Shown here one piece after another: positions 8,635 to 35,145 of a stretch of 64,000 bases of DNA. The notes under the pieces are model-generated. The model did no database searches, was not told where the DNA came from, and was given only the letters and a program-made list of their open reading frames with translations. The translations under genes were made by a program, and so were the position numbers. Position 1 is the first letter of the stretch. Each line of letters starts with the position of its first letter. Source of the stretch: an uncultured Ignavibacterium sp. (GTDB lineage: Bacteria > Bacteroidota > Ignavibacteria > Tepidaquicellales > Tepidaquicellaceae); the NCBI GenBank assembly GCA_964484125.1, contig CAZAEK010000008.1:24868-88867 (forward strand). The letters run 5' to 3'.

Positions 8635-8643
8635 AAAGGAATT

Positions 8644-18332: not shown

Positions 18333-18348
18333 TGGCACGATAATTGCT
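18333..18348 (+). promoter_or_regulatory. Sigma-54 (-24/-12) promoter
   Basis: TGGCAC-gataa-TTGCT is an exact match to the TGGCAC-N5-TTGCW consensus. It lies immediately downstream of the sigma-54 activator gene. Confidence 0.75.
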
Positions 18349-18353: not shown

Positions 18354-18731
18354 ATGAACGTGAAAAAAGTATTAAAAATATTGGTTTTCAGTTTAAATCC
18401 TGAGATGTGTAAATTAATGAAAAAATTTTTTGCAAAATTTGATTACAAATTTGATTGTGTGAAAATAGAAATTGACTCAGACTGGCGAAATCAAATTTTT
18501 GATAAAGAAATAGACTGCATCATTCTTGACACTAATATTAATTCCAGAGTGCAGGTAGAAATAAGGCAAAAATTCAGCAAAGCTATTTTTATTCTGATTC
18601 CCTCCTTCTCAAGTGAACCATATCCTGATTCAAATTCAGCTGATTTAATTCCTGAACCTTTTAAATTCAGTGAACTTGAAAAAGCATTATCTGAAATATA
18701 TAAATCAAAAGCTACTTCTGATGCGCTTTAA
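18354..18731 (+). CDS. Receiver-like (pseudo-REC) protein, first ORF of the cytochrome operon; start codon uncertain
   Basis: The pattern is CheY-like: KILVFSL (the DD acidic pair is replaced), DCIILD (Asp kept), AIFILIPS, and PEPFKFSELEKAL (the conserved Lys in KPF is replaced by Glu). The stop overlaps the next gene's ATG. Confidence 0.45.
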   Translation: MNVKKVLKILVFSLNPEMCKLMKKFFAKFDYKFDCVKIEIDSDWRNQIFDKEIDCIILDTNINSRVQVEIRQKFSKAIFILIPSFSSEPYPDSNSADLIPEPFKFSELEKALSEIYKSKATSDAL

Positions 18732-20586
18732 AACACTGATTTCAATATTGTATTTATTAATTTTTTTTGTTTTAATAATATTCATTGTTTCTTCATCTGT
18801 ACAGGTTAAGGCAAAATATTCAGACGATTGTCTTGCATGTCACGAAGATAAAGACCTTATAATGGAGAAAAACGGGAGAAAAATTTCACTTTATGTAAAT
18901 CCTTCAGTTTATAAAGCATCAGTTCACGGAGGTGCTGATTGTAAAGATTGTCATCAGGGTTACAATCCTGAAGAAATACCTCATAATCCGAAAAGTAAAG
19001 GTGTTAATTGTAATGAATGTCATGATATAAAAAAGAACACTTCCTCTGTTCATAATAATGTAAAGTGTTATTCCTGCCACGGTTATCATGACGTTGTTAC
19101 TGCAAAAGAATTTGCCAAGTCAGATAATTGTATAAATTGCCATAATACAAAAAGCATAACTTCATTCAAACAATCAGTTCATTTCAGAAAAAATATTTCC
19201 TGTGATAAATGTCATAAAGGTGGGCATGAAGTAATAAAAATTTCAAAGTCAGAATCAACAAGACTATGCTCTCAATGTCATAGAAATGCATTTAACGAAG
19301 TAAATAACAGTGTACACAAGCAGGCAAGCGGAAAAGGGCAAACGCCTGTATGCGTTGACTGTCATGGATATCACAGTATAAATACAAACAGACTTAGCAT
19401 AGAAGCACAGTCGTGCTATAAATGCCACCTCAATGAAAAAATGTTCCCCGGTAAAGAAAAGGGTTCTGCAGATTTTGTAGCACAATACGAAAAAAGTGTT
19501 CATAATTCAGTAAGAAAAAACGGAATCCCTGCGGCTTCATGTACAGATTGTCATGGAGACCATTTGATTAAGGGTTCAAAAGACTTAGAGACTAAAGATG
19601 GAATTCTGGAGTCATGTATAAGATGCCATGATAAAGCAGTAAAAGAATTCAGGATGTCAAAACACGGCAATAATGTTGAAAAAAGTCCGGGAAATCCGTT
19701 TGAATGTACTGATTGTCATGGAGAGCACGGAATTTTAGCCGTTAAACTCGATAGTAAACTTTCGAAACTTATGCAAACCGATATGTGTCTTGAATGTCAT
19801 AAAGACAATAAGTTTCAATCGAAATTTAAACCCGGAACGGAATTACACATTAACGATTATTTGAATAGTGCACACTATATAAAGCTGAGAGAAGGAAATC
19901 CAAATGCCGCATCTTGTACCGATTGTCATGGCTCGCATGCGATGTTAAATGCACTTGATCCCAATTCTCCAATAAATCCTAAAAACATTTCCTCAACTTG
20001 CGGACAAAGTAATTGTCATAATAAAATATATAATGAATATAAAGGTTCAATACACGATGTCTCAGTTCAGACGAAAGAAAAATCTGATGCTCCGACTTGC
20101 GTAAATTGTCACGGTAGTCACGGACTTCTTAAAAAAGATGACCCGGCTAATCCTTTAGCAAAACCAAATGGAGTTGTGCAGTTATGTTCTGATTGTCATG
20201 CTTCGGTCAGGATTGTAGAAAATAATAATCTTCCAAAAGGTATAGTAACAGACTTTAATTCAAGTTTCCATGGACTCGCATTAAGAGGTGGTTCACAGGA
20301 GGCAGCAGATTGCGGAAGTTGTCACGGTGTTCACAATGTTCGTCCGTCTTCAGATCCTATGTCAAGTATTCACGATAATAACTTACCGCAGACCTGTGGT
20401 AAATGCCATCCTGGTGCAACACTTGCAACGTTTAAGACTCCTATACACCTTGTAGAAAGTGCAGAAGAAAATGTTATACTAAAATGGGTTAAAATATTAT
20501 ATACATTTTTAATAATTGCAATAATTGGATTTATGGTATTACATAATATTTTTGATTTTATTAAGAAATTAAGGACTAAACATTAA
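18721..20586 (+). CDS. Membrane-anchored multihaem cytochrome c (18 CXXCH + 1 CX4CH)
   Basis: I counted 18 CXXCH motifs plus CGQSNCH. Seven occur as CxxCHGxH, alternating with SVH...CxxCH units. The N-terminal signal/anchor is MRFKTLISILYLLIFF... and the C-terminal TM is ILYTFLIIAIIGFMVL. The ATG at 18721 is preferred over the GTG at 18670. Confidence 0.85.
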   Translation: MRFKTLISILYLLIFFVLIIFIVSSSVQVKAKYSDDCLACHEDKDLIMEKNGRKISLYVNPSVYKASVHGGADCKDCHQGYNPEEIPHNPKSKGVNCNECHDIKKNTSSVHNNVKCYSCHGYHDVVTAKEFAKSDNCINCHNTKSITSFKQSVHFRKNISCDKCHKGGHEVIKISKSESTRLCSQCHRNAFNEVNNSVHKQASGKGQTPVCVDCHGYHSINTNRLSIEAQSCYKCHLNEKMFPGKEKGSADFVAQYEKSVHNSVRKNGIPAASCTDCHGDHLIKGSKDLETKDGILESCIRCHDKAVKEFRMSKHGNNVEKSPGNPFECTDCHGEHGILAVKLDSKLSKLMQTDMCLECHKDNKFQSKFKPGTELHINDYLNSAHYIKLREGNPNAASCTDCHGSHAMLNALDPNSPINPKNISSTCGQSNCHNKIYNEYKGSIHDVSVQTKEKSDAPTCVNCHGSHGLLKKDDPANPLAKPNGVVQLCSDCHASVRIVENNNLPKGIVTDFNSSFHGLALRGGSQEAADCGSCHGVHNVRPSSDPMSSIHDNNLPQTCGKCHPGATLATFKTPIHLVESAEENVILKWVKILYTFLIIAIIGFMVLHNIFDFIKKLRTKH

Positions 20587-21284
20587 TGAATACTTCATCC
20601 GGGAAAAAATATTTAAGAATGTCATTAAATGAAAGAATACAGCATATTCTTTTATTAACTACATTTATTACATTAGTTATTACAGGTTTCGGTTTACTTT
20701 ATCCTGAAGCTTTTTGGGTAAAATGGATAGTAGCTATTGTAGGGCAAAATGCATTTGAGGCAAGAGGTGTTGTTCATAGAATTGCAGCAGTTGTTATGGT
20801 TATAGCTTCAGTTTATCATATTTTATATGTAGTATTTACTAAAAGAGGCAGAAGGTTTGTAATTGATATGTGGTTTAAAATTCAGGATATCAAAGATATG
20901 TTTTCATACCTGAAATACATTGTTGGATTATCAAAAGAAAAACCGAAATTCGGAAGGTTCAGCTATATTGAAAAAATGGAGTATTGGGCAGTTGTATGGG
21001 GTACAGTAGTTATGGGTGCTACAGGCGGAGTACTATGGTTTGAAAATGAATTTCTACCGATAATCGGAATGGATGGAATGTACATAGCAACAGCAATACA
21101 TCTTTACGAAGCAATACTCGCATCATTGGCAATACTTGTCTGGCATTTTTATTTTATTTTTATAAATCCTGATGTATTTCCGATGAATAAGGCATGGATA
21201 ACAGGTTACCTCACACATGAGCAAATGAAACACGAGCATCCTTTGGAACTTGAACAAATTGAATCTGGTAACATAAAAAATTAA
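20586..21284 (+). CDS. Membrane b-type cytochrome, FdnI/HydC/PhsC-like (4 TM, conserved His pairs)
   Basis: Four hydrophobic helices carry His residues (RIQHILLL, VHRIAAV...YHILY, AIHLYEA...VWHFYF). The TAATG junction overlaps the upstream cytochrome c gene. Confidence 0.65.
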   Translation: MNTSSGKKYLRMSLNERIQHILLLTTFITLVITGFGLLYPEAFWVKWIVAIVGQNAFEARGVVHRIAAVVMVIASVYHILYVVFTKRGRRFVIDMWFKIQDIKDMFSYLKYIVGLSKEKPKFGRFSYIEKMEYWAVVWGTVVMGATGGVLWFENEFLPIIGMDGMYIATAIHLYEAILASLAILVWHFYFIFINPDVFPMNKAWITGYLTHEQMKHEHPLELEQIESGNIKN

Positions 21285-21356
21285 CTTAATTTTACACTTG
21301 AATATAAAGATAAAAATATCTTATTTTCCATTAACCAAATTAACTAAAAAACTCCT

Positions 21357-21914
21357 ATGAAGGGCAAACAAACACTATTGACAATCACTGTAGTTGCGGC
21401 TATCGTACTTTCCTTCTCTGCATTTAATTTCTACCATGGTGTGGGACAGTTTAAATACGTTGGCGTGACAAAATGTGTGGGCGCATGTCATAAAACAGAC
21501 GCTCAGGGAAAACAGCTTGATATCTGGAAGAACTCAAAACATTCAATGGCATACAAAACCCTTGAAACTCCTGAAGCAGATAAGATTGCAAAGGAAAAGG
21601 GTTTTGAAACTAAAGCAGCCGAAACTCCAAACTGTCTTAAATGTCACGTACTCGGTAAAGATATGGACCCCTCAGAATTTACAGAGACATTTGATAAAAA
21701 AGATGGAGTTCAGTGTGAAAGCTGTCATGGTCCCGGCTCTGAGTATAAGACAATGTCAATTATGAAAGACAAACAAAAATCAATTGAAAATGGACTTATT
21801 GTCCACACAGAAAAAGAAGCTTTTTGCACAAACTGTCATAATGCAGAGAGCCCAACTTTTAAAGGATTTGAGTACGACAAGATGTGGGATGCAATAAAAC
21901 ATCCAAAGCCGTAA
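21357..21914 (+). CDS. Small periplasmic multihaem cytochrome c (3 CXXCH + 1 CX3CH), cytochrome c554-family-like
   Basis: It has a signal peptide and the motifs CVGACH, CLKCH, CESCH and CTNCH. 185 aa. Confidence 0.7.
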   Translation: MKGKQTLLTITVVAAIVLSFSAFNFYHGVGQFKYVGVTKCVGACHKTDAQGKQLDIWKNSKHSMAYKTLETPEADKIAKEKGFETKAAETPNCLKCHVLGKDMDPSEFTETFDKKDGVQCESCHGPGSEYKTMSIMKDKQKSIENGLIVHTEKEAFCTNCHNAESPTFKGFEYDKMWDAIKHPKP

Positions 21915-21941
21915 TTTATTTTTGATAGTTAATAAGTCATT

Positions 21942-21966
21942 CCCGTTCCGGGAAAGCCGGAACGGG
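21942..21966 (+). other. Intra-operon GC-rich hairpin (attenuator or RNA-stability element)
   Basis: CCCGTTCCGG-gaaag-CCGGAACGGG is a perfect 10-bp stem with no clear T tract after it. Confidence 0.4.
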
Positions 21967-21993
21967 TAAATTATTAAAAACCGTATTATAAAT

Positions 21994-23298
21994 ATGATGA
22001 GAAAATTTATCTACTTTTTAATTCCTCTTTTTGTGGTTCTCTTCACTTCTACAGGTTTATATTCTCAAACTGTTAATGCAAGGTTCAGCACTTCTTTTTA
22101 TACCTGGGAAAGATATGACTCAATCGGTTCTGAATCTTCCACTAAACATTTGAGGGCATACCAGAATATTCTGCTTGATGTCTCGCAGAAAAAATGGTCT
22201 TTCAATACCAATGCTCAGCTTGAAGGGGATATAATAGAAAAATCCGGAAGAGGATTTAGCTACAGATTTTATAGTCTGTATATTAAAGGGTCAAACCTGT
22301 TTGATGTAATGGATGTCAGACTCGGAAGGCAATATGTCTCAGCCGGTGTTGGCAGGGGATATATTGACGGAGCACATCTGAAATTCAAACTCGGTAAAAG
22401 TAAAGAGTATCAACTTACTGCATACGGAGGCGGACTTTCACCACTCTCATACGATTTCGATTATGGAGAAAAATATCAATTAAAAGATAATTTTTCCATT
22501 GGTGCGATGTTTCAGTATTACGGTGTAAAAGACTTAATGCTTGGTGTAAGTTATTATAACAAACACAGAGCCGTACCGAGTTACTATGCCCCAAGACTTG
22601 ACAGCGCTCTTTTTACAAAGATTGTTGAAATTCAAACTGAGCCATTTGCTGATCAACTCGCAGGATTTGATTTTTCTTTTTTCAAGCCATCTTATCAGGC
22701 AATGGGAAAGGTTTACTATGATATAAACCTTAAAAAACTTTACAGGGCTGATTTGAATGCGGGTTTTAATGTTGCCGAAAATCTGCGTTTTAATTTCGGA
22801 TTTTTATATCGCGAACCACAGATAAGCTATAATACCATTTTCTGGGTTTTTCAGCATAAGCCGCTTTCCGAATTTGAAGCAGGATTGGATTATACACTTC
22901 TTAAAAAATATAATATATATTTCAAGGTTTCTGACGTGATGTATGATAACGATAATTCTGCAAAATTCTCATTTGGCTTTTCACATGCAAACTATGGAAT
23001 TTCATTTGTAAAATATACTGGTTATGCAGGAGAGTCTGACGGAGCATTTGGTTATTTCAATTATGAGTTGCTGAGGTCAAAACTTGCAATAACATCAGGT
23101 CTTAATTATTCCAACTATAGTATTAAAAATTATTCTGAAGATAAAGTAAGTGCGTTTTCAGGAATTCTCGGATTAGTTTACAGGCCTGTTGACCATTTCA
23201 CCATTGATTTACAGGGACAGATTATTACGAACAAAATTTATAAGACGGATACAAGAATATTGCTTGGTTTTAATTACTGGTTATTTAAGAAATTTTAA
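21994..23298 (+). CDS. Outer-membrane beta-barrel (porin-like) protein of the cytochrome locus
   Basis: Signal peptide MMRKFIYFLIPLFVVLFTSTGLYSQ. Strands are amphipathic and Tyr/Gly-rich throughout. The C-terminus ...GFNYWLFKKF ends in Phe (OMP signature). Confidence 0.65.
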   Translation: MMRKFIYFLIPLFVVLFTSTGLYSQTVNARFSTSFYTWERYDSIGSESSTKHLRAYQNILLDVSQKKWSFNTNAQLEGDIIEKSGRGFSYRFYSLYIKGSNLFDVMDVRLGRQYVSAGVGRGYIDGAHLKFKLGKSKEYQLTAYGGGLSPLSYDFDYGEKYQLKDNFSIGAMFQYYGVKDLMLGVSYYNKHRAVPSYYAPRLDSALFTKIVEIQTEPFADQLAGFDFSFFKPSYQAMGKVYYDINLKKLYRADLNAGFNVAENLRFNFGFLYREPQISYNTIFWVFQHKPLSEFEAGLDYTLLKKYNIYFKVSDVMYDNDNSAKFSFGFSHANYGISFVKYTGYAGESDGAFGYFNYELLRSKLAITSGLNYSNYSIKNYSEDKVSAFSGILGLVYRPVDHFTIDLQGQIITNKIYKTDTRILLGFNYWLFKKF

Positions 23299-23309
23299 AA
23301 TTCAACATT

Positions 23310-24569
23310 ATGAGAATTATGAAATTTTACACTTTGCTGATTACATGTCTGACTTTTTTCGTTACTATAACTGCCTATAATTTTTATTCGGGCGGGACAG
23401 TTACCTCAAAAAGTATTTTTACAAAACACGTAATAGCAAAGGACAATCCTGATAACAGGACAATTATCAAATTCAATCACTCTAAACATCTGAAAGACGC
23501 AGGGGTACAATGTACTGATTGTCATACTAAAGCTCCAAATTCTGTTAATGCCCTCGAAAGTCTTGTCCCGGTAAAAGCTGCCTGTGCAAACTGTCATGAT
23601 GTTGAAAATAAAAATGAATGCAGTCTATGTCATTTTGAAGGAGTTTTTAAAAAGCTTGTTCCAACTCTCAAGGAATTACATTTCAGCCATAAGAAACATG
23701 TAAAAGACAGTAAAATGCAATGCCTTGATTGCCATAGAAATATGCCCGAGTATAAATATTCAAGTGATAATCCTCAAAAATATCCGGAAATGGAAATATG
23801 TGCCAAATGTCATAACGATGTAGAAGCGACAATGAGCTGTGAGAAATGTCATACAAATCTGACTAATCTGAAACCGATGAATCATCTTCAGTCAAACTTT
23901 CTCAATGAGCATAAATGGGTATTTGAAGCTTCAAATGAAAAAAATAATTGTATGATGTGCCATTCGGATAATTTCTGTCAGGTTTGCCACAGTGCCGGGA
24001 AATATAACGGTTCGAATACAAAAAAAGATTTTTATGCCCCTTATTGGACAAAGAATTCAGGTACAAGAATTGACAGAGCGGAATTACAAAAACTAAATAC
24101 AGTTCATACTCTTAATTACCTTTATACTCACGGAATAGAAGCATTACATAAATCTTATGAGTGTAAAACCTGTCATGATCCGGTAGAGTTCTGTTCTGCC
24201 TGCCATAAGACGGGCGGTAATCTTGTAACTGGTTTCATGCCCAAAAGCCATCTTGTACCAAATTTCAAAACTTTCGGTGTAGGAACAGGTGGCGGATTAC
24301 ACGCTGAACTTGCAAGAAAGGATATTGAATCATGTCAGGCATGTCATGATGTGAACGGCGGTGATCAGATCTGTATAAAGTGTCATTTCGATAATGATGG
24401 AGTGAAAGGTACGAATCCCAGAACACATGAATGGGGATTTATGAAAGATGAAAAAGGAATCTGGCACGAAACACAGGGAGCTATTTGTTTCAGATGCCAT
24501 ACTGATGCAAATGCAAGACCAAATGGAATAGCCGGAATAGGATTCTGTGGCTATTGCCATGGTAAATAA
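23310..24569 (+). CDS. Multihaem cytochrome c (14 CXXCH)
   Basis: I counted 14 CXXCH motifs. It has an N-terminal hydrophobic signal/anchor. 419 aa. Confidence 0.85.
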   Translation: MRIMKFYTLLITCLTFFVTITAYNFYSGGTVTSKSIFTKHVIAKDNPDNRTIIKFNHSKHLKDAGVQCTDCHTKAPNSVNALESLVPVKAACANCHDVENKNECSLCHFEGVFKKLVPTLKELHFSHKKHVKDSKMQCLDCHRNMPEYKYSSDNPQKYPEMEICAKCHNDVEATMSCEKCHTNLTNLKPMNHLQSNFLNEHKWVFEASNEKNNCMMCHSDNFCQVCHSAGKYNGSNTKKDFYAPYWTKNSGTRIDRAELQKLNTVHTLNYLYTHGIEALHKSYECKTCHDPVEFCSACHKTGGNLVTGFMPKSHLVPNFKTFGVGTGGGLHAELARKDIESCQACHDVNGGDQICIKCHFDNDGVKGTNPRTHEWGFMKDEKGIWHETQGAICFRCHTDANARPNGIAGIGFCGYCHGK

Positions 24570-24609
24570 ATAAAATTAATAATAAAAGTTAATTGAATAT
24601 TTAGTCAAT

Positions 24610-25482
24610 ATGAAAAAAAATAATCTTTTATATCTTCTTTTAATACCTGTGGTTATAATAATAATTACTTTATATAGCTGCAGTAAACTGGAAGATAATC
24701 TTGTAAATGCTCCTAAGGCAGGAATACATCCCGAGGGCTGGACCAACCCTGTAAATGAAAATTTTCACGGAAAGTATTTTTACTCGAATAAATGGGATTT
24801 TAAATTTTGTACACAATGTCACGGTGCTGATTATAATGGAGGTAACACGGGTAAAAGCTGTAATGATCCTGCATGCCATGGAAGTTCAACACCTGAAGAT
24901 TGCAGACTATGCCATGGAGACAGGAGTACTACAATTTTCCCGCCTGTTGGACTAAATGGCTCAACCTCAGTTACTTATATTGGTGTTGGTACTCATAACA
25001 CACATTTGAACAAAGATAGTACTCTCAGGAATTCAGCAAGAGTAAGATGTGTTTCATGCCACCCTTCTATAACAGGTTTTTATGACCCGAAACATATTGG
25101 TACGAATCCGGATAACATTGCTGATGTTGTATTTGATTCTCTTTCCAAAACCTCAACAGACGGAATAACTCCAAACCCTGTCTGGAATAGAAATAATCCA
25201 CAGTCATGCTCAGAGACTTATTGTCATGGAAATTTCAAAAATGGAAATTACAGACTAAATCCTGCTTCAATGATTAATCCTTCCTGGACAGATCCTAATT
25301 CTGTATATTGTGGTACCTGCCATGGAAATCCGGGAACAGGAAATCCTCTGCCGGGCGGTACACACCTGCAGGGATTTACAATTTATAATTGCTATTTCTG
25401 CCATGGTTCGGTTATCAGCAATACAGGAAATATTATAAATAAATCAAAACATATAAACGGAATCGTTAATATGAATCAGTAA
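24610..25482 (+). CDS. Lipoprotein multihaem cytochrome c (5 CXXCH + 2 CX4CH; CxxxxCH...CxxCH paired units)
   Basis: Lipobox ...ITLYSC. The units CNDPACH-x7-CRLCH and CSETYCH-x26-CGTCH resemble the Geobacter CxxxxCH/CxxCH domain (TIGR01904, recalled from memory). Confidence 0.75.
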   Translation: MKKNNLLYLLLIPVVIIIITLYSCSKLEDNLVNAPKAGIHPEGWTNPVNENFHGKYFYSNKWDFKFCTQCHGADYNGGNTGKSCNDPACHGSSTPEDCRLCHGDRSTTIFPPVGLNGSTSVTYIGVGTHNTHLNKDSTLRNSARVRCVSCHPSITGFYDPKHIGTNPDNIADVVFDSLSKTSTDGITPNPVWNRNNPQSCSETYCHGNFKNGNYRLNPASMINPSWTDPNSVYCGTCHGNPGTGNPLPGGTHLQGFTIYNCYFCHGSVISNTGNIINKSKHINGIVNMNQ

Positions 25483-25511
25483 ATATATATTTCATCAAGA
25501 TTTAATTAAAA

Positions 25512-25541
25512 AGAGGTTGCCCAAAAGTAGCCTCTTTTTTT
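25512..25541 (+). terminator. Rho-independent terminator candidate
   Basis: AAGAGGTT-10 nt-AGCCTCTT, followed by a T run. Confidence 0.5.
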
Positions 25542-25567
25542 ATTAAATTTTATATACCTTATTAAAC

Positions 25568-25587
25568 ACGGGGTATTTTTCCACACA
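25568..25587. promoter_or_regulatory. Candidate upstream activator site (inverted copy of the 16847 motif)
   Basis: The reverse complement GTGTGGAAAAATACCCCGTG matches GTGTGGAATAATTCCTCATG at 16 of 20 positions. It lies about 80 nt upstream of the second -24 element. Confidence 0.3.
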
Positions 25588-25664
25588 AAGAAAATTTATT
25601 GTCCAAATATACCCATAAAAAGTAAACCTGAATTTTATTTCTTTAAAAAATTATAAATTTAATT

Positions 25665-25680
25665 TGGCACAAAAATTGAT
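25665..25680 (+). promoter_or_regulatory. Sigma-54 (-24/-12) promoter
   Basis: TGGCAC-aaaaa-TTGAT has one mismatch at -12. It lies about 45 nt upstream of the ATG at 25725, which has a GGAGG SD. Confidence 0.6.
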
Positions 25681-25724
25681 ATGTATGTCTAAAATTATCT
25701 TTTAAAAATAAACGGAGGTCACTA

Positions 25725-27119
25725 ATGAAAAGATATTTTTCGTTTTTTTTGATAGTTTCAATAATCTTCATTTCTGAGTCTCTATTCTCGCAGTCAACAA
25801 GTTTTCATATGTTGAGAAAAGGACATGCAAATTTTTATGCTTCAACAAATGGTGGATTTGAAACTATATCAAATATTCCGATTAATGCTCTGCGCTGTTT
25901 GAAATGTCATCCGGGCAAATTGGCAAATAATACACCAATTGATACTGCAACTTATGCACCTTCCTGCAATGATTGCCATAATTTTTCTGCAGGAACTTCA
26001 GTGCCAGATACAATATGTCTGAGATGTCACAGCAGGCAAAAAGTTGAAAGAGCAAATTTCACAGACAAACACAGATCTGCAGGAATGACTTGCGTAACCT
26101 GTCATATTAAGGATGAACTACATGCAGATGCAACTCCTTATTTTTCAGGGTTCGATACTATTCAGGGTAAAACATGTACAACAGTTGGTTGTCATAACAA
26201 CGTCCCTGTAACTCCTGACGATTCACTTGCTCACGCAATTCACAACAGCAAGCTCGAATGTGCCACATGCCATGCAAGGTCTCAGATAACCTGTTACAAC
26301 TGCCACTTTGAAACAGAAATCTGGCAGGGAATGAGAGGATTTAAAAGACCAATTGGCCAATATAAAGGTTTCATAATGCTCGGAAGATATACCAAAACCG
26401 GAAAGGTAGGTATTGTCAATTATCAGTCAATTATCTATCAGGGCAATAAAACATTTAATGCATGGGGTCCGTATTATCCTCATACGATAATGCCAAAGGA
26501 TTCAACACGCGGCTGCTCCGAATGTCACAACGCTCCAACTATTCAGGAATACAATACAACAACAAAAATCGTTGTTGCAAAATGGGATTCTACTCTTACA
26601 CCAAAGAAAATAGTTCACACTCAGGGAATGATTCCTGTTCCACCTGATTATTTAACTTCTTTGGTTTTTGATTTTGCAAACTATATTGGCAGAGTTGATA
26701 CAACATATACAGACCCGACCAAATGGGTATATGCCAAAACCGGTTTAACAGGAAATCAGATGCTATCGAGATATGTAATGCCTTTAACTGCGGCACAGAT
26801 GACGGCACTTGGCTCAACTATCGGTATCACACCAATCAGCACCGAGGTACCAGGTAATTTTGAATTATTCCAAAACTATCCAAATCCGTTCAACCCGAGC
26901 ACAGTTATCAAATTTAATATTGCAAAGACTGCAAACGTTTCGATAAATGTATATAATTCACTTGGTAAACTTGTTACAACATTAGTATCGCAGAAATTGA
27001 ATTCGGGTACATATCAGGTTGATTTTGATGGCAAAGAACTTTCCAGTGGTATTTATTTCTACACAATGAATATTGACGGAAAGGTATCAGCTGCTAAAAA
27101 GATGCTGTTGGTAAAGTAA
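25725..27119 (+). CDS. Multihaem cytochrome c (7 CXXCH + 1 CX4CH) with T9SS C-terminal sorting domain
   Basis: It has a signal peptide and the motifs CLKCH, CNDCH, CLRCH, CVTCH, CTTVGCH, CATCH, CYNCH and CSECH. The C-terminus is FQNYPNPFNPSTVIKFNI...GIYFYTMNIDGKVSAAKKMLLVK. Confidence 0.85.
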   Translation: MKRYFSFFLIVSIIFISESLFSQSTSFHMLRKGHANFYASTNGGFETISNIPINALRCLKCHPGKLANNTPIDTATYAPSCNDCHNFSAGTSVPDTICLRCHSRQKVERANFTDKHRSAGMTCVTCHIKDELHADATPYFSGFDTIQGKTCTTVGCHNNVPVTPDDSLAHAIHNSKLECATCHARSQITCYNCHFETEIWQGMRGFKRPIGQYKGFIMLGRYTKTGKVGIVNYQSIIYQGNKTFNAWGPYYPHTIMPKDSTRGCSECHNAPTIQEYNTTTKIVVAKWDSTLTPKKIVHTQGMIPVPPDYLTSLVFDFANYIGRVDTTYTDPTKWVYAKTGLTGNQMLSRYVMPLTAAQMTALGSTIGITPISTEVPGNFELFQNYPNPFNPSTVIKFNIAKTANVSINVYNSLGKLVTTLVSQKLNSGTYQVDFDGKELSSGIYFYTMNIDGKVSAAKKMLLVK

Positions 27120-27148: not shown

Positions 27149-27189
27149 GAGACCGGTTCCGATATTTGTCGGGACCGGTCTCAGTTTTT
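27149..27189 (+). terminator. Strong rho-independent terminator
   Basis: GAGACCGGTTCCG-atatttgt-CGGGACCGGTCTC is a 13-bp stem with one G-U, followed by AGTTTTT. Confidence 0.8.
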
Positions 27190-27364
27190 AGGAATATTAC
27201 AAATTATTCTGTTATTTTAACAAAAAAACAAATCAGAATTATTAATAAAGTATTTTTGTTTAGTATTTTGAATAAGATATATACAAATTTGTTTTCTAAT
27301 TGTTTATTATATTTGCTAAAAAAATTATTTTAAGTATATTTATCGCAATAAAAATTTAATATAG

Positions 27365-27864: not shown

Positions 27865-28524
27865 TTGAATATAATTTATAAATCTGCCGTTTTTATCATC
27901 ATAACAGGAGTGTTACTGGCTGCATTCTTATCGCCAATTCCAAATATACCTGCTCTTGGCGAGAAAGCAAGGATAATTTTCCTTCATGTTCCGACTGCAT
28001 GGCTTAGCGTAGTAGCTTTTTTAATTTCTATGATATATTCAGTCATATATCTTAAAAAAAGAGATATATTCGCTGATATAAAAGCATTTGCCTCGGCTGA
28101 GATCGGATTTTTATTTTGTATTCTTGCAACAGTTACAGGTTCAGTTTGGGCAAAATTCAGTTGGGGTTCTTTCTGGAACTGGGATCCGAGGGAGACTTCA
28201 ATTTTTATCCTTTTGCTTATTTATGGAGCTTATTTCTCATTAAGGTCAGCTATAGATAATCCGGAACAAAAAGCTAAACTCGCATCTGTATATTCCATTA
28301 TTGCTTTTATAACTGTACCTTTTTTCATATTTATAATGCCGCGTCTTGTTGAGACGCTTCACCCTGACCCGATTATTAACGACAGGGGCAAAATAAATAT
28401 GTCACCGAATATGCAGATAATATTTTTCAGTTCATTAGCTGGATTTACTATGCTTTTTTTCTGGATGTTAAATGTTAAGGTACGATTGGAAAATCTAAGA
28501 ATTAAAAAAATTAATATAAACTAA
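27865..28524 (+). CDS. ccmC: Haem exporter/haem-handling protein CcmC (System I cytochrome c maturation)
   Basis: Trp-rich WWD motif WGSFWNWDPRETS, flanking His residues (FLHVPTAW, ETLHPDP) and 6 TM segments. It has a TTG start. Confidence 0.8.
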   Translation: MNIIYKSAVFIIITGVLLAAFLSPIPNIPALGEKARIIFLHVPTAWLSVVAFLISMIYSVIYLKKRDIFADIKAFASAEIGFLFCILATVTGSVWAKFSWGSFWNWDPRETSIFILLLIYGAYFSLRSAIDNPEQKAKLASVYSIIAFITVPFFIFIMPRLVETLHPDPIINDRGKINMSPNMQIIFFSSLAGFTMLFFWMLNVKVRLENLRIKKININ

Positions 28525-28534
28525 AGAATAATTT

Positions 28535-28648
28535 ATGAATGATATCTATGTTGTTTTAATTATCGCTTTAATAATCTGGTTTGGATTGTTTATTTATTTA
28601 TTTATGATTGACAAAAGATTAAAAAAACTTGAAGATGAAAACAAATAA
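28535..28648 (+). CDS. ccmD: CcmD-like small membrane protein (37 aa; below the ORF-track cut-off)
   Basis: My own translation is MNDIYVVLIIALIIWFGLFIYLFMIDKRLKKLEDENK. It is a single TM followed by a basic tail, placed between ccmC and ccmE as in canonical ccm operons. Confidence 0.6.
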   Translation: MNDIYVVLIIALIIWFGLFIYLFMIDKRLKKLEDENK

Positions 28649-28654
28649 AATTTT

Positions 28655-29041
28655 ATGAATAACAGAATTAAAATAATTATAGGGGTTGTTATTGTTCTTG
28701 TCTTTGTATCCATTGGCTTTTTTAAGTTTATGGATACAAAAATTGAATACGTCAATTTTCAGGAGGCAACTGCTAAGTCAAAAGTCGTTGAAGTTAAAGG
28801 CGTATGGCTTAAAGACAAGGAAACAAAATTTGATCCTGAAAAAGCAACTTTTGAATTCTTTATGAAAGATGATTATAATACTGAAATGAAGGTAATTTAC
28901 CAGGGAGGAAAACCTAATAACTTTGAAGTTGCAGATGCAATAGTTGTTAAAGGTCAGGTAAAAAACGGCTCGTTTCATGCAAAAGAAATTCTGACAAAAT
29001 GCCCGTCTAAATACGAAGGCGACGGACAGGATGTAAAATAA
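28655..29041 (+). CDS. ccmE: Haem chaperone CcmE, CxxxY variant
   Basis: It has an N-terminal TM anchor and an OB-fold-length body. The C-terminal LTKCPSKYEG sits where HxxxY is found in canonical CcmE. Confidence 0.75.
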   Translation: MNNRIKIIIGVVIVLVFVSIGFFKFMDTKIEYVNFQEATAKSKVVEVKGVWLKDKETKFDPEKATFEFFMKDDYNTEMKVIYQGGKPNNFEVADAIVVKGQVKNGSFHAKEILTKCPSKYEGDGQDVK

Positions 29042-29067
29042 TATTTCACCATAATTTTAATCTTAAT

Positions 29068-31353
29068 ATGATAGGAAAAATTCTCGTTTATATAACATTA
29101 GCCGCAAGTTTTATATCAATTATCGGCTATGCGTTAACTTATTTCAGAAAAAATAATCTTCTTAAGATATCAAGATTATTTTTTCACATTACAGTTATAA
29201 GTGTACTGTTCGCTTCGGCTTACTTATTAAGTCTGATTTTATCTCATCAGTTCCAGTATTCCTATGTCTGGGAATATAGCAGCCGTTCACTCGGAACACC
29301 ACTTCTGATTTCCACTTTCTACGCAGGACAGGAAGGAAGTTTTTTACTCTGGGCACTTTTTGCATCAATTATCGGAATATTTCTGATAAATAATGTCTCG
29401 AAAAATTCTGATTTTGAAGCACCTGTAATGATGATTTATACATTAGTAATAGCATTCCTTGCAGTGCTTTTAGTACTGAAATCACCCTTTACTACTATCT
29501 GGGAAGCATTCCCGGGACAGGTAAAAGAAAATTATATGCCTGAGGATGGAAGAGGGCTAAACCCGATATTACAGAACTTCTGGATGGTAATACACCCGCC
29601 TATTTTATTTATCGGCTTTGCTTCACTTGCAGTACCATTTTCTTTTGCACTTGCAACCCTGTTTAATAAAAAATACAGGGAATGGGTTTACTATGTAATG
29701 CCATGGATGCTATTTGCTTCAGCTACTTTAGGCCTTGGTATTATTCTCGGAGGATATTGGTCTTATGGTGTTCTCGGCTGGGGCGGATATTGGGCATGGG
29801 ATCCGGTAGAAAATTCATCTCTGATTCCATGGCTCGTTTCAGTTGCGGCTTTGCATACTCTTATTGGTCAGAAAGCAACAGAAGGATATAAAAAAACAAA
29901 TATTATTTTATCAATTATTGCTTATCTGCTTGTACTTTATTCTACTTTTCTTACAAGAAGCGGAATACTTCAGGATGCTTCTGTTCATTCCTTTGTTAAG
30001 CCCGGAATGGAAGTATATATAGCACTTGTCCTTTTCATCTCTTCATTTGCATTAATATCTGCTATTGCGATTGCAGTAAGATTTAAGTCTCTGAGTGAAG
30101 TTGCAAAAAAAGATGCGAAAGTAAATATTCTTTCAAGAGAAGCGGTTTTGTATATCGGGGCACTGATTATTCTTGCATCAGGTGCTATTATCATTGCAGG
30201 AACAAGTTTACCTATTTTCTCCAAAAGCACAGTAGATATCAGTTTCTATAACCAGATGAATATGCCAATTGCAATTGTAATGCTCGTTTTTGCAGCAATA
30301 GCTTTTTTCCTTGATTGGAGATCAACTGACACTAAAAAGTTTCTAAATAAATTAATTACTCCGGCTGCACTTGCGCTTGTTACAACCATTATCCTTGCTA
30401 TATTTGCAATTAATGAATTAGTATATATAATATTTACATTTGTTATATTTTTTGCTTTCTTTTCCGGTTTAATAAAACTCGGAAATGTTTTCAAGGCAAA
30501 GAAATTAACTTTTGGTGCCGCAGTTGCACATATCGGACTTGCACTTTTCTTCCTCGGAATTATTGCATCTTCAAAATACAGTGAAGAAGTAAAGTTATCA
30601 CTTGAAATGGGTAAACCTGCAGAAGCTTTTGGATATTTATTCACCTATACAGGAGCAGAGCCGTTTGACGACCCTCAAAATCCAAACGATGAAAAATATT
30701 ATTTTAACATACTCGTTGAAAAAGATAATAAAGAAATGGTATTAAAGCCGGTGATGTATTTCAGTAGTTTCAATGAAGGCCTTATGAAAAATCCTGATAT
30801 AGCAAGTTTTGTTACTAAAGATATTTATCTCTCTCCGATAGAATTAATTGCTCCCCAGAAATTCAACCCCAAAGATGAACAAGCAATTGGTCAAAATGAA
30901 GAAAAAGAAATCAATGGTGTAAAAATAAAATTTATTGATTTTGACCTGAGCCAGGCACCAATGGGAAATCAGGCGGAAATGACAGATTATTCTATTTTTG
31001 CTAATGTCAGCACTACTTATAACGGAAAAACTAATCCTTTAAAACTCGAATTGAAATATGTTGGAGGAGTGCCTGAACCTGTAGAAATTAATCTTCCGCA
31101 GGATGAAAAAATTACATTAATGTTTACAGGTATGAATGTAAAAAATGAACAGAACCCGGTATCATCAGCAAAAATAGTTGTTGCAACCGAAGAAACTAAA
31201 TCAAAATTTAAAAAGCAGGAAGAAATGATGATAGCAAGTGTTGCTATAAAACCATTTATCGGAGTTTTATGGCTTGGTGCTTTTATAATGATTTTTGGTT
31301 TCTTCTATTCAATTATAAAAAGAGTCAGGGATTTGAAAAAGGTAAATAATTAA
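29068..31353 (+). CDS. ccmF: Cytochrome c haem lyase subunit CcmF
   Basis: 761 aa and polytopic, with the WWD motif WGGYWAWDPVENSSLIPW. Confidence 0.85.
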   Translation: MIGKILVYITLAASFISIIGYALTYFRKNNLLKISRLFFHITVISVLFASAYLLSLILSHQFQYSYVWEYSSRSLGTPLLISTFYAGQEGSFLLWALFASIIGIFLINNVSKNSDFEAPVMMIYTLVIAFLAVLLVLKSPFTTIWEAFPGQVKENYMPEDGRGLNPILQNFWMVIHPPILFIGFASLAVPFSFALATLFNKKYREWVYYVMPWMLFASATLGLGIILGGYWSYGVLGWGGYWAWDPVENSSLIPWLVSVAALHTLIGQKATEGYKKTNIILSIIAYLLVLYSTFLTRSGILQDASVHSFVKPGMEVYIALVLFISSFALISAIAIAVRFKSLSEVAKKDAKVNILSREAVLYIGALIILASGAIIIAGTSLPIFSKSTVDISFYNQMNMPIAIVMLVFAAIAFFLDWRSTDTKKFLNKLITPAALALVTTIILAIFAINELVYIIFTFVIFFAFFSGLIKLGNVFKAKKLTFGAAVAHIGLALFFLGIIASSKYSEEVKLSLEMGKPAEAFGYLFTYTGAEPFDDPQNPNDEKYYFNILVEKDNKEMVLKPVMYFSSFNEGLMKNPDIASFVTKDIYLSPIELIAPQKFNPKDEQAIGQNEEKEINGVKIKFIDFDLSQAPMGNQAEMTDYSIFANVSTTYNGKTNPLKLELKYVGGVPEPVEINLPQDEKITLMFTGMNVKNEQNPVSSAKIVVATEETKSKFKKQEEMMIASVAIKPFIGVLWLGAFIMIFGFFYSIIKRVRDLKKVNN

Positions 31354-31461: not shown

Positions 31462-32346
31462 ATGTTTAATTCCATTGTATTAGTTAAGCAGGTTCCCGAT
31501 ACCACAAATATTACCGGACAGGTAATGAAAGAGGATGGTACGGTAAACAGAGCTAAACTGCCTGCTATTTTTAATTTTGAGGATAAAGTTGCACTTGAAC
31601 TTGCGTTGAGAATAAAAGATGAATATGGAGGGAAGGTAACAGCAATAACAATGGGACCTCCGAGAGCTTCAGATATTTTAAGAGAATGTCTTTATATGGG
31701 AGCCGATGAAGTATATGCAATAAGCGACAGAAAATTTGCCGGAGCTGATACATTGGCAACGTCTTATGTACTGAGTGAAGCAATAAAAAAAATCGGTCAG
31801 TATGATTTTATATTTGCAGGCAGACAGGCAATAGACGGAGATACTGCTCAGGTTGGACCACAGACAGCAGAAAAACTTGGAATACCACAGGTAACTTATG
31901 TAGAAGAAATACTCGGGCTTTCGGAAGGTAAAGCTAAAATCAGAAAAAAAATAGACGGAGGTTTTGAAATAGTTGAAGTAAAACTACCTGTATTATTAAC
32001 GGTTATCAAGGAAGCCGCTGAGCCAAGACCTTACAGCGCCAAAAGGGTAATGCAATACAAGGGGGCTAAATCATTAATGGATTTGGAAAAACTTACTGAA
32101 GGAAATCCTTTGCTTTATATTGATTCACTTCAGCACGAATATGAAAAAAGAAATTTATTTATCCCGACACTCACAACAGATGATTTACCTGTTGACCTTT
32201 CGAGGATAGGTATAAAAGGTTCGCCTACAAAAGTTTACAAAATCGAATCTGTTGTTTTAGCAGGCGGAAATAAAGAAATAATAGAGCCGACCAAAAAGGG
32301 AATAGGTGAGCTGATAGATAAATTAATTGATGACCATATATTTTAA
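31462..32346 (+). CDS. etfB: Electron transfer flavoprotein beta subunit
   Basis: The N-terminus IVLVKQVPDT... and ...GRQAIDGDTAQVGPQ... are typical of EtfB. Confidence 0.85.
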   Translation: MFNSIVLVKQVPDTTNITGQVMKEDGTVNRAKLPAIFNFEDKVALELALRIKDEYGGKVTAITMGPPRASDILRECLYMGADEVYAISDRKFAGADTLATSYVLSEAIKKIGQYDFIFAGRQAIDGDTAQVGPQTAEKLGIPQVTYVEEILGLSEGKAKIRKKIDGGFEIVEVKLPVLLTVIKEAAEPRPYSAKRVMQYKGAKSLMDLEKLTEGNPLLYIDSLQHEYEKRNLFIPTLTTDDLPVDLSRIGIKGSPTKVYKIESVVLAGGNKEIIEPTKKGIGELIDKLIDDHIF

Positions 32347-32382
32347 TTTTTTATAATCAAGGTAACATAAAGAATTTATAAA

Positions 32383-33417
32383 ATGAGTAATAGCGGAACA
32401 AAAAATAAGCCATCTGAAGTTTGGGTATTCATTGAACAAAGAGAAGGTAAACCTGCAGATGTGAGTTTTGAGCTTTTAAGCAAGGGAAGGAAACTTGCAG
32501 ATAATATGAACGGGCTTCTGAAAGCAATAGTGATAGGGGATAACGTTTCCGGAATTGCAAAAGAATCATTCAGGTTCGGCGCAAACGAAGCTTATCTTAT
32601 TCAGCATCCTGAACTTAAACATTACAGAACTTTGCCTTATGCAAGGATACTTAATGAACTTATAGAGAAAGAAAATCCGAGGATTGTACTTTTTGGAGCT
32701 ACAATTATCGGGAGAGATCTTGCTCCAAGGGTTGCATCACATACAAAAAGCGGGCTGACAGCTGACTGCACAGATTTAAAAATTGCAGATATAACTTATC
32801 TTAACAAAGATTACAGGGAACTGCTTCTGCAGATCAGACCTGCATTTGGCGGTAATATCGTTGCAACTATTATTACTCCGGACGTATATGTTCAGATGGC
32901 AACTGTAAGAGAAGGCGTAATGGAAATGCATCAATATGAAAATCCTTTTGAAGTAAAGATTACTGAAATACCTTATGTACCGAATGAAATTGATAACCTA
33001 GTAACATTTATTGAACAGCATAGAGAAGAATCAAAAATTAATTTAAAAGCCGCACCAATAATAGTAGCAGGGGGTTACGGACTCGGAACGAAAGAGAATT
33101 TTAATTTAATATTTGAACTTGCTCATACACTCGGAGCTGAAGTCGCCGGAAGCCGTGCCGCAGTTGATGCGGGATTTATTCCACACGAAAGACAGGTAGG
33201 TCAAACAGGCGTTACCGTTCGTCCAAAGTTATACATTGCAGTTGGTATTTCCGGTGCAATTCAACACAGAGCAGGTATGCAGGAAGCTAATAAAATAATA
33301 GCAATAAACAATGACCCTGATGCACCGATCTTTGAAATTGCACATTATGGAATAGTAGGAGATGCAACAGAAATAATACCGACATTTATCGAAACTTATA
33401 AAAGTAAATTGAAATAA
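32383..33417 (+). CDS. etfA: Electron transfer flavoprotein alpha subunit
   Basis: The C-terminal FAD motif is ...GSRAAVDAGF...QVGQTG..V.PKLYIAVGISGAIQH. Confidence 0.85.
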   Translation: MSNSGTKNKPSEVWVFIEQREGKPADVSFELLSKGRKLADNMNGLLKAIVIGDNVSGIAKESFRFGANEAYLIQHPELKHYRTLPYARILNELIEKENPRIVLFGATIIGRDLAPRVASHTKSGLTADCTDLKIADITYLNKDYRELLLQIRPAFGGNIVATIITPDVYVQMATVREGVMEMHQYENPFEVKITEIPYVPNEIDNLVTFIEQHREESKINLKAAPIIVAGGYGLGTKENFNLIFELAHTLGAEVAGSRAAVDAGFIPHERQVGQTGVTVRPKLYIAVGISGAIQHRAGMQEANKIIAINNDPDAPIFEIAHYGIVGDATEIIPTFIETYKSKLK

Positions 33418-33423
33418 AATAAT

Positions 33424-35145
33424 ATGCCAAATTTTTTCACAGACAATAAAGACCTGATTTTTCAATTTGAAAGACTTGACCTTAAGGAAGTTGTGCAGAT
33501 AGCGGAAAATAATTACGAGGAATCAAAGAAATATCCTTATGCACCAACGAACTATGAAGATGCAATGGAAAATTACCGCAAAGTTCTTGAGGTAGTTGGA
33601 GATATAGCCGGAAATTATATTGATGCAAGAGCAGGAGAGGTTGATACAGAGGGTGCCCATTATAAAAACGGAGAAGTGAATTATGCTTCCGGCACTGTTG
33701 AGAATTTAAAGCAACTTTCAAAGGCAGACCTTATGGGCATGGTACTTCCGAGAAGATTTGGAGGTCTGAATTTTCCGACATCAATATATATGATGGCAAC
33801 AGAAATAATAGCCCGTGCAGATGCATCGCTTATGAATATTTTTGGTTTGCAGGATATTGGTGAGATGATTAATAAATTTGGAGATGAAAGCCAGAGGGAA
33901 GAATTTCTGCCAAAGTTCTGTACAGGCGAATATACCGGAGCTATGGCATTGACAGAACCCGATGCCGGCTCTGATTTACAGGCAGTAAAATTAACAGCAT
34001 ATCAGGATGAGAAAGGTCAGTGGTTTTTAAAAGGTGTGAAAAGATTTATTACAAACGGAAATGCCGATGTTCACCTTGTACTTGCCCGTTCTGAACCCGG
34101 TACAAAAGACGGAAGAGGTTTAAGTATGTTTGTATGTTACAGAGATAAATCTGTTGTAATCAGGCGAATTGAAAATAAACTTGGCATACACGGCTCACCC
34201 ACATGTGAACTGCAGTTTAATGACACTCCTGCATGGCTTGTTGGCAAAAGAAAATTCGGATTGATAAAATATGTTTTTGATTTAATGTTTCGTGCAAGAC
34301 TCGGAGTTTCTGCACAGGCACTTGGTATATCGCAGGCAGCTTATGAAGAAGCCCTGAAATATGCAAAAGACAGGGTTCAGTTCGGAAAGTCAATATATAA
34401 CATTCCTGCCGTAACAAACATACTGCTTGATATGAGAACTACACTCGAAACAAACCGTACTTTAATGTATGCGGCAGGTACTGCTGTTGATATAAAAGAG
34501 AAACTTGAGGAATTAGTAGAAAAGAACAAGGCAGAAGGGAAAAATGATACTGAGTTAAATGAAAGACTTAAATCAGTAACAAAGTTTGCAAATTTTGTAA
34601 CACCTCTTGCAAAATATATTTTAACCGAAAGTGCAAATAAGATAACATACGATGCACTTCAGATTCACGGAGGAACAGGATATATGAAGGAGTTCAGAGT
34701 TGAAAGACTCGCCCGTGATGCACGAATAACAAATATTTATGAAGGGACTTCACAGCTTCAGATAGTAGCGGCAATAGGTGGAGTTCTTGGTGATATATTA
34801 AAAGATATGTTTGATAAAAAGGAGAAGAAAGAATATCCCGGCGGACTTGCAAGACTCTCTGAAATACTAAAGGAAATCCGTGTAATATTTTATGACAGTT
34901 TGAAATATGTTGTGGATAAAAAAGATGTCAGTTTTCAGGATGTTGCAGCGAAAGATCTTGTTGAGCTTTATAGCTATATTTATACCGGCTGGCTGCTACT
35001 CGATGAAGCCGAAGTAAACGAAAGAAAGAAATTTATTGCAAACAGATATATAATTGAATCACTTGCAAATGCGAGAAAAAATGCAGAAAATATCAAAAAC
35101 GAACTTTTCTCTGATATACTGCATGCAGATAAAATATTAATATAA
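33424..35145 (+). CDS. Large acyl-CoA dehydrogenase (573 aa)
   Basis: Motifs read: ALTEPDAGSD, FITNG, the GIHGSPTCEL region, and QIHGGTGYMKEFRVERLARDARITNIYEGTSQLQ. Confidence 0.85.
   Translation: MPNFFTDNKDLIFQFERLDLKEVVQIAENNYEESKKYPYAPTNYEDAMENYRKVLEVVGDIAGNYIDARAGEVDTEGAHYKNGEVNYASGTVENLKQLSKADLMGMVLPRRFGGLNFPTSIYMMATEIIARADASLMNIFGLQDIGEMINKFGDESQREEFLPKFCTGEYTGAMALTEPDAGSDLQAVKLTAYQDEKGQWFLKGVKRFITNGNADVHLVLARSEPGTKDGRGLSMFVCYRDKSVVIRRIENKLGIHGSPTCELQFNDTPAWLVGKRKFGLIKYVFDLMFRARLGVSAQALGISQAAYEEALKYAKDRVQFGKSIYNIPAVTNILLDMRTTLETNRTLMYAAGTAVDIKEKLEELVEKNKAEGKNDTELNERLKSVTKFANFVTPLAKYILTESANKITYDALQIHGGTGYMKEFRVERLARDARITNIYEGTSQLQIVAAIGGVLGDILKDMFDKKEKKEYPGGLARLSEILKEIRVIFYDSLKYVVDKKDVSFQDVAAKDLVELYSYIYTGWLLLDEAEVNERKKFIANRYIIESLANARKNAENIKNELFSDILHADKILI

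Follow-up and report, generated by a model that had tools for sequence, protein, structure and literature searches.

Extracellular electron transfer is known mainly from Shewanella and Geobacter, in which the surface cytochromes are lipoproteins. To our knowledge, the known type IX secretion system (T9SS) cargos are hydrolases, adhesins, and motility proteins, and the route by which cytochromes of the Ignavibacteria reach the cell exterior has not been addressed so far. Here, we analyzed a 64,000-nucleotide (nt) stretch of contig CAZAEK010000008.1 (the window), which comes from an uncultured Ignavibacterium sp. and contains a target gene for an octahaem cytochrome that ends in a T9SS C-terminal sorting domain (CTD). 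Anodes, iron-rich settings, and wastewater commonly harbor Ignavibacteria and their relatives (PMC7399161, PMC11495043). Furthermore, a porin-cytochrome conduit (Pcc) has been described in I. album JCM 16511, in which IALB_1840 is a periplasmic cytochrome, IALB_1839 is porin-like, IALB_1838 has 14 haems in ~400 amino acids (aa), and IALB_1837 is an outer-membrane cytochrome with atypical CX4CH motifs (PMC4245776). The gene next to the IALB_1837-1840 cluster, which would be the counterpart of our target, is not mentioned in the searched text of that paper. The CTD model TIGR04183 is reported to be specific to the Fibrobacteres-Chlorobi-Bacteroidetes (FCB) superphylum, with 811 such proteins across Kryptonia genomes (PMC4737851), and carbohydrate-active enzymes of Melioribacter carry the type A T9SS tag (PMC3534657). 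We think that the target protein acts beyond the outer membrane, at the distal end of a chain for extracellular electron transfer, and the T9SS tag on its conserved octahaem module offers a concrete, testable answer to how Ignavibacteria cytochromes get outside.

The target gene and the elements that flank it are as follows (positions in the window).

25508 to 25545, plus strand: intrinsic terminator upstream of the target, closing the Pcc transcription unit (-18.5 kcal/mol, z = -5.96, then U7)
25571 to 25614, no strand assigned: inverted repeat GGGTATTTTTCCACA / TGTCCAAATATACCC, with 15-nt arms that are 80% complementary and 14 nt apart
25665 to 25679, plus strand: sigma-54 -24/-12 element TGGCACAAAAATTGA, TGGCAC-N5-TTGA, an exact match to TGGCAC-N5-TTG[AC]
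25714 to 25718, plus strand: Shine-Dalgarno sequence GGAGG, read in the sequence, 6 nt 5' of the ATG
25725 to 27119, plus strand: target open reading frame (ORF), 464 aa, octahaem cytochrome with a T9SS CTD
25725 to 25790, plus strand: Sec (signal peptidase I) signal peptide, residues 1 to 22, with n-, h-, and c-regions visible in the sequence
25791 to 26849, plus strand: octahaem module, residues 23 to 375, haem-rich at its N terminus, then a beta-rich domain with haem site 8
26877 to 27116, plus strand: type A T9SS C-terminal sorting domain, residues 385 to 464, assigned by HMM (hidden Markov model) matches, fold, and motifs
27149 to 27190, plus strand: intrinsic terminator of the target gene (hairpin 27149 to 27182, then a U run)

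The initial annotation had placed a multihaem cytochrome with a canonical T9SS CTD at 25665 to 27119. It had the right gene, but 25665 is the first position of the promoter element, and the start codon lies at 25725. The proposed CTD was borne out when the TIGR04183 HMM check was run: this type A model scored 39.1 bits against a curated cutoff of 23, and PF18962 scored 44.6 bits against a cutoff of 27 (residues 385 to 460 of 464). The type B model TIGR04131 reached 16.4 bits, under its cutoff of 35. The domain carries the CTD motifs YPNPFNP, GIYFY, and KKMLLVK, and AlphaFold2 modeled it as a seven-strand beta-sandwich with a pLDDT of 80 to 89. For the CTD, Foldseek recovered 8gl8_D and 8gl6_D (TM-score normalized to the target, 0.60 to 0.62) and also PorU (6za2_B); 8gl8 and 8gl6 are Flavobacterium T9SS translocon complexes with bound substrate CTDs. 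On every feature that we could test, the predicted protein belongs to the type A CTD cargos. The window encodes four type A CTD proteins with the target included. The three others (4364 to 6418, 6560 to 8488, and 35865 to 36866, all on the plus strand) contain BNR/Asp-box repeats, Kelch repeats, and a "choice-of-anchor J" domain, one each.

The N-terminal part of the protein is a haem-binding module. CXXCH motifs are found at residues 58, 81, 98, 123, 179, 190, and 264, and a CX4CH motif (CTTVGCH) is found at 151, so the count of seven plus one in the initial annotation stands, with C264 opening the last site. All eight sites were 100% conserved among 69 aligned homologues. Because site 5 is CX4CH in 30 of these sequences and plain CXXCH in the other 39, the longer motif is a two-residue insertion at a genuine haem site. 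Pfam Cytochrome_C7 matched the target at 35.8 bits (cutoff, 24.8). A separate non-haem domain had been proposed to follow the haem motifs; a beta-rich domain does exist there, but its start lies near residue 205, and the eighth haem site is within it. The AlphaFold2 model of the target, built with 26 homologues, had a mean pLDDT of 77.8, with values of 80 to 94 in the beta-rich domain (residues ~205 to 375). In a Foldseek search of the PDB with the whole model, only CTD-type beta-sandwiches matched, and there was no match for the haem-plus-beta module, the haem part of which has low model confidence.

The signal peptide, read from the sequence as MKRYFSFFLIVSIIFISESLFS followed by Q, is predicted to be cleaved before Gln23. 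Its position is conserved in the homologues, and Q23 is nearly invariant across the alignment; S26, H28, R31, and G33, just past the cut, are invariant. The near invariance of Q23 extends through the cytochrome family in Ignavibacteria, KSB1, and Calditrichota and resembles the "Q-rule" of Bacteroidetes, which is said not to cover the entire FCB group (PMC5837995). In the window, Gln lies at or near the predicted signal-peptidase cut in six secreted proteins (ORFs 4364, 12122 on the minus strand, 21994, 25725, 35865, and 38649), with cuts such as LYS/QT, LFS/QS, AFS/QY, and SFA/QE.

The full-length protein has many homologues of equal length and architecture. A pattern scan in which each GTDB species was represented by one genome gave 221 loci with a relative, of which the best 80 were analyzed. 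At these 80 loci, 77 homologues have complete ORFs. The CTD is present in 64, every one of them from an FCB-group lineage (Ignavibacteria, Melioribacteraceae, Kryptoniota, KSB1, Calditrichota, and Bacteroidota orders). The other 13 homologues, which lack it, belong to Fervidibacter/Armatimonadota, Bipolaricaulota, Acidobacteria, and HR10, plus one bin labeled Cytophagia, and they stop right where the CTD linker would begin. The protein from the Cytophagia bin (L073) has 728 aa and 16 haem motifs and lacks a CTD; its tblastn match ran to query residue 462, and its CTD may have been split off by a frameshift or an assembly error.

When residues 1 to 375 alone were searched against 1.84 billion cluster representatives (50% identity clusters), 337 clusters matched at an E value of ≤1e-3 and 125 at ≤1e-30. 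Judged by these sequence matches, the octahaem module is a distinct, fairly small family without a Pfam or NCBIfam name. Of 118 full-length cluster representatives, the CTD is present in 17, and many that lack it have a lipoprotein signal in its place: a PROSITE-type lipobox is seen in 45 and usually precedes a Gly/Pro/Thr/Asp-rich stretch; several of the rest have lipobox-like or signal-anchor N termini. Across the family, this distribution of lipobox and CTD reads as a swap of envelope-anchoring signals. A redox module that is lipid anchored in many lineages and T9SS tagged in the FCB group is what one would expect of a protein at or beyond the outer membrane, and we regard this alternation as the strongest indirect argument for the earlier idea of T9SS export. 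The fetched loci also contain further cytochromes with the CTD, whose haem motifs number from 9 to 24. In Melioribacteraceae and KSB1, versions of ~800 aa and 16 haems lie directly past an activator and Pcc genes. One protein of 1145 aa (L020, positions 953 to 4390) has 24 haem motifs together with ExtM-like regions and a T9SS CTD. Its contig is labeled Deferribacteres, a phylum not expected to have the T9SS tag, and the bin label may be wrong.

The target lies directly downstream of a cluster of cytochrome genes and upstream of cytochrome c maturation (Ccm) genes. The neighboring features are the following.

16885 to 18228, plus strand: sigma-54-dependent response regulator (enhancer-binding protein) at the head of the cluster, with Response_reg, Sigma54_activat, and HTH_8 domains
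18333 to 18347, plus strand: first sigma-54 -24/-12 element, TGGCACGATAATTGC, 5' of the quinol-oxidase and Pcc genes
18670 to 20586, plus strand: 19-haem membrane-anchored cytochrome (18 CXXCH and one CX4CH, hydrophobic N terminus)
20586 to 21284, plus strand: cytochrome b (Ni_hydr_CYTB domain)
21357 to 25482, plus strand: Pcc module, made up of the next four genes
21357 to 21914, plus strand: 4-haem c554-like cytochrome
21994 to 23298, plus strand: outer-membrane beta-barrel of 434 aa, without a Pfam match, a barrel in AlphaFold2
23310 to 24569, plus strand: 14-haem periplasmic cytochrome with a signal peptide
24610 to 25482, plus strand: 7-haem lipoprotein cytochrome with CX4CH motifs and the lipobox LYSC
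27865 to 31353, plus strand: System I cytochrome c maturation genes ccmC, ccmE, and ccmF (Pfam and NCBIfam matches)

The cytochrome cluster genes from 18670 to 25482 are all on the plus strand. The 19-haem cytochrome and cytochrome b would together form a quinol-oxidizing entry module. The 434-aa protein was modeled by AlphaFold2 as all beta, with ~24 strands and a pLDDT of 79.4, and it matched the outer-membrane barrels AlgE, FimD, and Occ porins. A porin-like barrel, a periplasmic multihaem cytochrome, and an outer-membrane lipoprotein cytochrome, the set by which a Pcc is recognized, are thus found in one cluster, and the four genes upstream of the target fit the I. album IALB_1840-1837 layout when compared by its published description (PMC4245776). 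On the 3' side of the target, a small lipoprotein gene is followed by ccmC, ccmE, and ccmF. The best genomic match was a metagenome-assembled genome labeled I. album, in which the target is 91% identical and 14 of 14 neighboring genes are in the same order; the source of the window is thus Ignavibacterium-like. The order of the Pcc module, sigma-54 activator, and CTD-cytochrome is also kept in Melioribacteraceae and KSB1. Directly past ccmF (31462 to 35145, plus strand) lie genes for the beta and alpha subunits of an electron-transfer flavoprotein and a long acyl coenzyme A dehydrogenase, an order kept in L001 and L008.

The expression signals of the target gene agree with the initial annotation, which had read a sigma-54 promoter of the form TGGCAC-N5-TTGA, a GGAGG Shine-Dalgarno sequence, and terminators on both sides. 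The downstream hairpin (27149 to 27182) has a 15-bp stem with nine GC pairs, a folding energy of -33 kcal/mol, and a z score of -8.62. The promoter element and GGAGG lie between this terminator and the upstream one, and the target gene is predicted to be its own, monocistronic transcription unit. Exact TGGCAC-N5-TTG[AC] matches occur at two sites in the window (18333 and 25665), versus 0.13 expected; the element of the target agrees with the consensus TGGCAC-N5-TTGC at 9 of 10 positions, with the -12 C replaced by A. A scan that allowed one mismatch was not above chance (4 seen versus 5.2 expected), and therefore only the exact matches and their conservation carry weight. We compared the window with the ten closest orthologous loci (L001 to L010; 60 to 91% protein identity). 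A GG-N10-TG site ([T]GGCA[CT]-N5-TTG[CAT]) was found ~46 to 60 nt 5' of the start codon in the window and in 10 of 10 orthologues, compared with a background of 8.7% of random 360-nt windows from the same loci, and the sequence flanking the conserved element has diverged. As a prediction, sigma-54 control of the target gene is well supported.

The activator at the head of the cluster matched Sigma54_activat at 240 bits and contains a GAFTGA motif. In 31 of the 80 loci, the target homologue has an activator homologue no more than 10 kb away, mostly directly upstream; no rpoN gene was found in the window. We infer that this activator acts on the target promoter. The inverted repeat at 25571 to 25614, which has G+C-rich ends, lies within an A+T-rich spacer 50 to 95 nt upstream of the -24 element, and parts of it recur upstream of the orthologues, making it a possible activator-binding site. 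However, it is not found at the other sigma-54 promoter (18333), which has a different repeat, TGTAGA-N12-TCTACA, near 18238 to 18261; therefore, the activator site stays only a candidate. The sigma-54 control common to the conduit and the exported cytochrome would point to a dedicated regulatory switch for this respiration.

Two further observations concern these regulatory regions. The first sigma-54 element ends 7 nt ahead of the ATG of a 125-aa ORF (18354 to 18731), which has no family match and resembles a receiver domain that has degenerated; L001, L008, and L011 conserve it. Because a transcript starting ~12 nt past the -12 element would begin inside this ORF, either its true ATG is a later one or the ORF is a long leader. 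In a group of paralogues with ~38% identity, we did not find a -24/-12 element directly upstream of the CTD-cytochrome gene. At these loci (L031, L039, and L038, at about 8000 to 10000, and ~20 more), the gene follows a PAS-type sigma-54 activator of ~442 to 444 aa, and a conserved ORF of ~155 aa with a CPC motif lies between the two. The stop and start codons overlap or are very close, and thus the regulator, small protein, and cytochrome are probably cotranscribed.

Taken together, these results incline us, with slightly more confidence than doubt, to a reading in which Sec export, haem attachment by Ccm, and CTD-dependent passage through SprA/PorV would make the target the outermost cytochrome of a sigma-54-controlled, Pcc-type conduit. 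The gene would be transcribed monocistronically from its sigma-54 promoter, driven by the response-regulator activator at the cluster head. The precursor would pass through Sec and be cut by signal peptidase I before Gln23, and its eight haems would be attached in the periplasm by the Ccm system, whose genes are adjacent. The folded holoprotein would then be recognized via its type A CTD and passed through the T9SS translocon SprA/PorV, after which it may stay on the cell surface or be released. The quinol-oxidase module of the 19-haem cytochrome and cytochrome b would feed the porin-cytochrome conduit. Once outside, the target would take electrons from that conduit (the 14-haem periplasmic cytochrome, the beta-barrel, and the 7-haem lipoprotein cytochrome) and hand them to acceptors that are insoluble or extracellular (e.g., Fe(III) minerals or electrodes), or possibly run in the reverse direction.

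Several points weigh against this reading. We know of no experiment that has shown the T9SS to carry a protein with covalently bound haem. Nearest orthologues L002, L005, and L007 lie amid housekeeping genes, away from any Pcc cluster, and thus the functional link to the Pcc rests on only part of the family. The haem region was modeled by AlphaFold2 with low confidence (pLDDT, 55 to 70), as is expected of a model made without haems. Only five non-motif histidines (H28, H116, H133, H173, and H253) are invariant in the 69 sequences, and H170 is present in 59%. With five such residues for eight haems, some haems may have a different or open distal position, which allows for a catalytic role in place of a purely conductive one. 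In addition, Pfam and NCBIfam scans of nearly all large ORFs found no T9SS core genes in the window. In one published survey, SprA, PorV, and Plug were the sole T9SS proteins detected in Ignavibacterium and Melioribacter (PMC11705866), and the motor GldKLMN and sortase PorU may be absent or too divergent to detect. Given that SprA, PorV, and Plug are reported, the translocon that recognizes type A CTDs is itself reported to be present. The initial annotation had made its proposal depend on core T9SS genes in the organism, and the answer is divided: these three are reported for the genus, and none lies in the window.

Candidates for T9SS components among the ORFs that we examined were rejected. 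A FadL-like barrel (12122 to 13378, minus strand) was considered as PorV and is BamG-like instead. Its NCBIfam BamG score, 246.5 bits, falls slightly short of the cutoff (250), and it matched the BamG chains of the Bacteroidota BAM complex structures 9hjm and 9n2d; this Ignavibacterium-like genome thus seems to encode a BAM accessory subunit of the Bacteroidota type. Large or CTD-bearing ORFs in the fetched loci, considered as PorU or SprA, were a protease, a cellobiosidase-like enzyme, and unknowns.

Of the alternatives, the one that survives best, although we consider it unlikely, is that the protein is exported as a catalytic octahaem reductase for a soluble or colloidal substrate (e.g., an oxyanion of sulfur, nitrogen, selenium, or arsenic) and is not a conductive end-piece for minerals. 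One or more of its haems would then have an open or unusual distal position, with which the shortage of invariant histidines is consistent. Moreover, among PDB sequences it matches octahaem tetrathionate reductase best (1sp3, E = 1.8e-9), with NrfB and NrfA-type reductases next. However, these matches span only ~100 residues of a generic haem-packing module, the CXXCK motif is absent from the target, and the whole module has no solved-fold match in the Foldseek search of the PDB. The conserved neighbors, furthermore, are porin-cytochrome genes and not substrate-specific accessory genes. The closest solved sequences in the PDB profile search were 1sp3, a Geobacter c7-type polymer, MtrA, and NrfB, and Pfam Cytochrom_c_NrfB-like matched the target partially and below the family cutoff. 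Because the PDB matches are weak, partial, and confined to the haem module, we rejected membership in the octahaem tetrathionate reductase, NrfB, and NrfA families and took the similarity to be that of generic haem-packing modules.

Somewhat less likely again is that the cytochrome stays in the periplasm as a carrier or electron store for the Pcc conduit, its Ig-like CTD being kept without export because the T9SS of Ignavibacteria is incomplete. The reported complement of SprA, PorV, and Plug in Ignavibacterium and Melioribacter (PMC11705866) and the lack of any T9SS gene in the window would fit this possibility. However, Melioribacter carbohydrate-active enzymes have the same tag (PMC3534657), and three further CTD proteins are encoded within the window. 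The CTD and its motifs are kept in 64 homologues from several phyla and are missing from the CTD-less homologues outside the FCB group. A periplasmic carrier, moreover, would not need to be swapped for a long-linker lipoprotein form in other phyla.

In Flavobacterium, many type A CTD cargos are released and not anchored, which counts in favor of the third alternative. We regard as improbable, and as the weakest of the three, that the target is released after export as a diffusible cytochrome or forms a haem filament in which its N-terminal arm (TSxH28xxR) ligates a haem of the next subunit: the invariance of S26, H28, R31, and G33, the shortfall of invariant distal histidines relative to haems, and the reported lack of PorU in Ignavibacterium (PMC11705866) would agree with it, but OmcS, OmcE, and OmcZ were unmatched at an E value of ≤1 in the PDB profile search, and the lipid-anchored homologues in other phyla point to a cell-bound role.

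To return to export through SprA/PorV to the outer end of the conduit, the initial annotation had gone further and cast the T9SS as the functional counterpart of the type II secretion system (T2SS). That proposal gained comparative support from the adjacency of the Pcc and ccm genes, the CTD in the FCB group, and the lipoprotein form elsewhere; export itself is the step that we infer. A broader version, which we hold tentatively and as plausible but short of probable, is that the T9SS would be a general route outward for haem-loaded cytochromes of 8 to 24 haems in FCB lineages (Ignavibacteria, Melioribacteraceae, Kryptoniota, KSB1, Calditrichota, and some Bacteroidota), replacing the lipoprotein/T2SS route, with a pared-down SprA/PorV/Plug system in Ignavibacteria that would have neither a recognizable GldKLMN motor nor a PorU sortase. 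If this were true, these proteins would be the first cofactor-bearing redox cargo of the T9SS, its cargo range would extend to proteins with covalently bound cofactors, and Ignavibacteria would provide a natural test of a minimal translocon. The combination of a CXXCH-rich protein with TIGR04183 could also serve as a simple genomic marker for predicting surface cytochromes in FCB-group genomes.

The individual parts are known, and databases already list such proteins under the name "T9SS type A sorting domain-containing protein"; the combination of the octahaem module with a T9SS CTD is not described in the literature that we searched. In our full-text literature searches, no paper connected the T9SS to multihaem or c-type cytochromes. 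The Ignavibacteria electron-transfer papers discuss Pcc clusters and predicted extracellular cytochromes and do not mention the T9SS tag, and the Melioribacter respiration paper and the I. album genome paper do not discuss the target protein.

Comparison with known systems places the target as follows. To octahaem tetrathionate reductase 1sp3 and NrfB, it shows a weak similarity over ~100 residues that include its haem sites 3 to 6. It differs from them in that the match is partial and under the family cutoffs, the domain order is another, and no match was found at the level of fold. With Shewanella MtrC and OmcA, it shares the character of a multihaem c-type protein that would be matured by Ccm in the periplasm and that has haem-rich and beta-rich parts, and it is proposed to share folded passage across the outer membrane and partnership with a porin-cytochrome conduit. 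However, MtrC and OmcA have ten haems, an N-terminal lipoprotein signal, and T2SS export, whereas the target has eight haems, a C-terminal T9SS domain, and sigma-54 control. Because PF22113 and TIGR03507 were unmatched in the target at an E value of ≤0.01, membership in the MtrC/OmcA family was rejected, and the analogy concerns the proposed role only. Relative to Geobacter-type Pcc clusters, including I. album IALB_1837-1840, the target is an additional gene that has a promoter and a terminator to itself, and it has a T9SS CTD, which none of the Pcc components described in PMC4245776 has. Finally, like the type A CTD cargos gingipain RgpB, Flavobacterium ChiA and RemA, and Rhodothermus Xyn10A, the target has a Sec signal and a CTD of ~80 aa, with equal motifs and an equal beta-sandwich fold. 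It differs from these cargos in that the T9SS of its host lineage may consist of the translocon part only (PMC11705866) and in that its passenger would be a redox protein with eight covalently bound haems.

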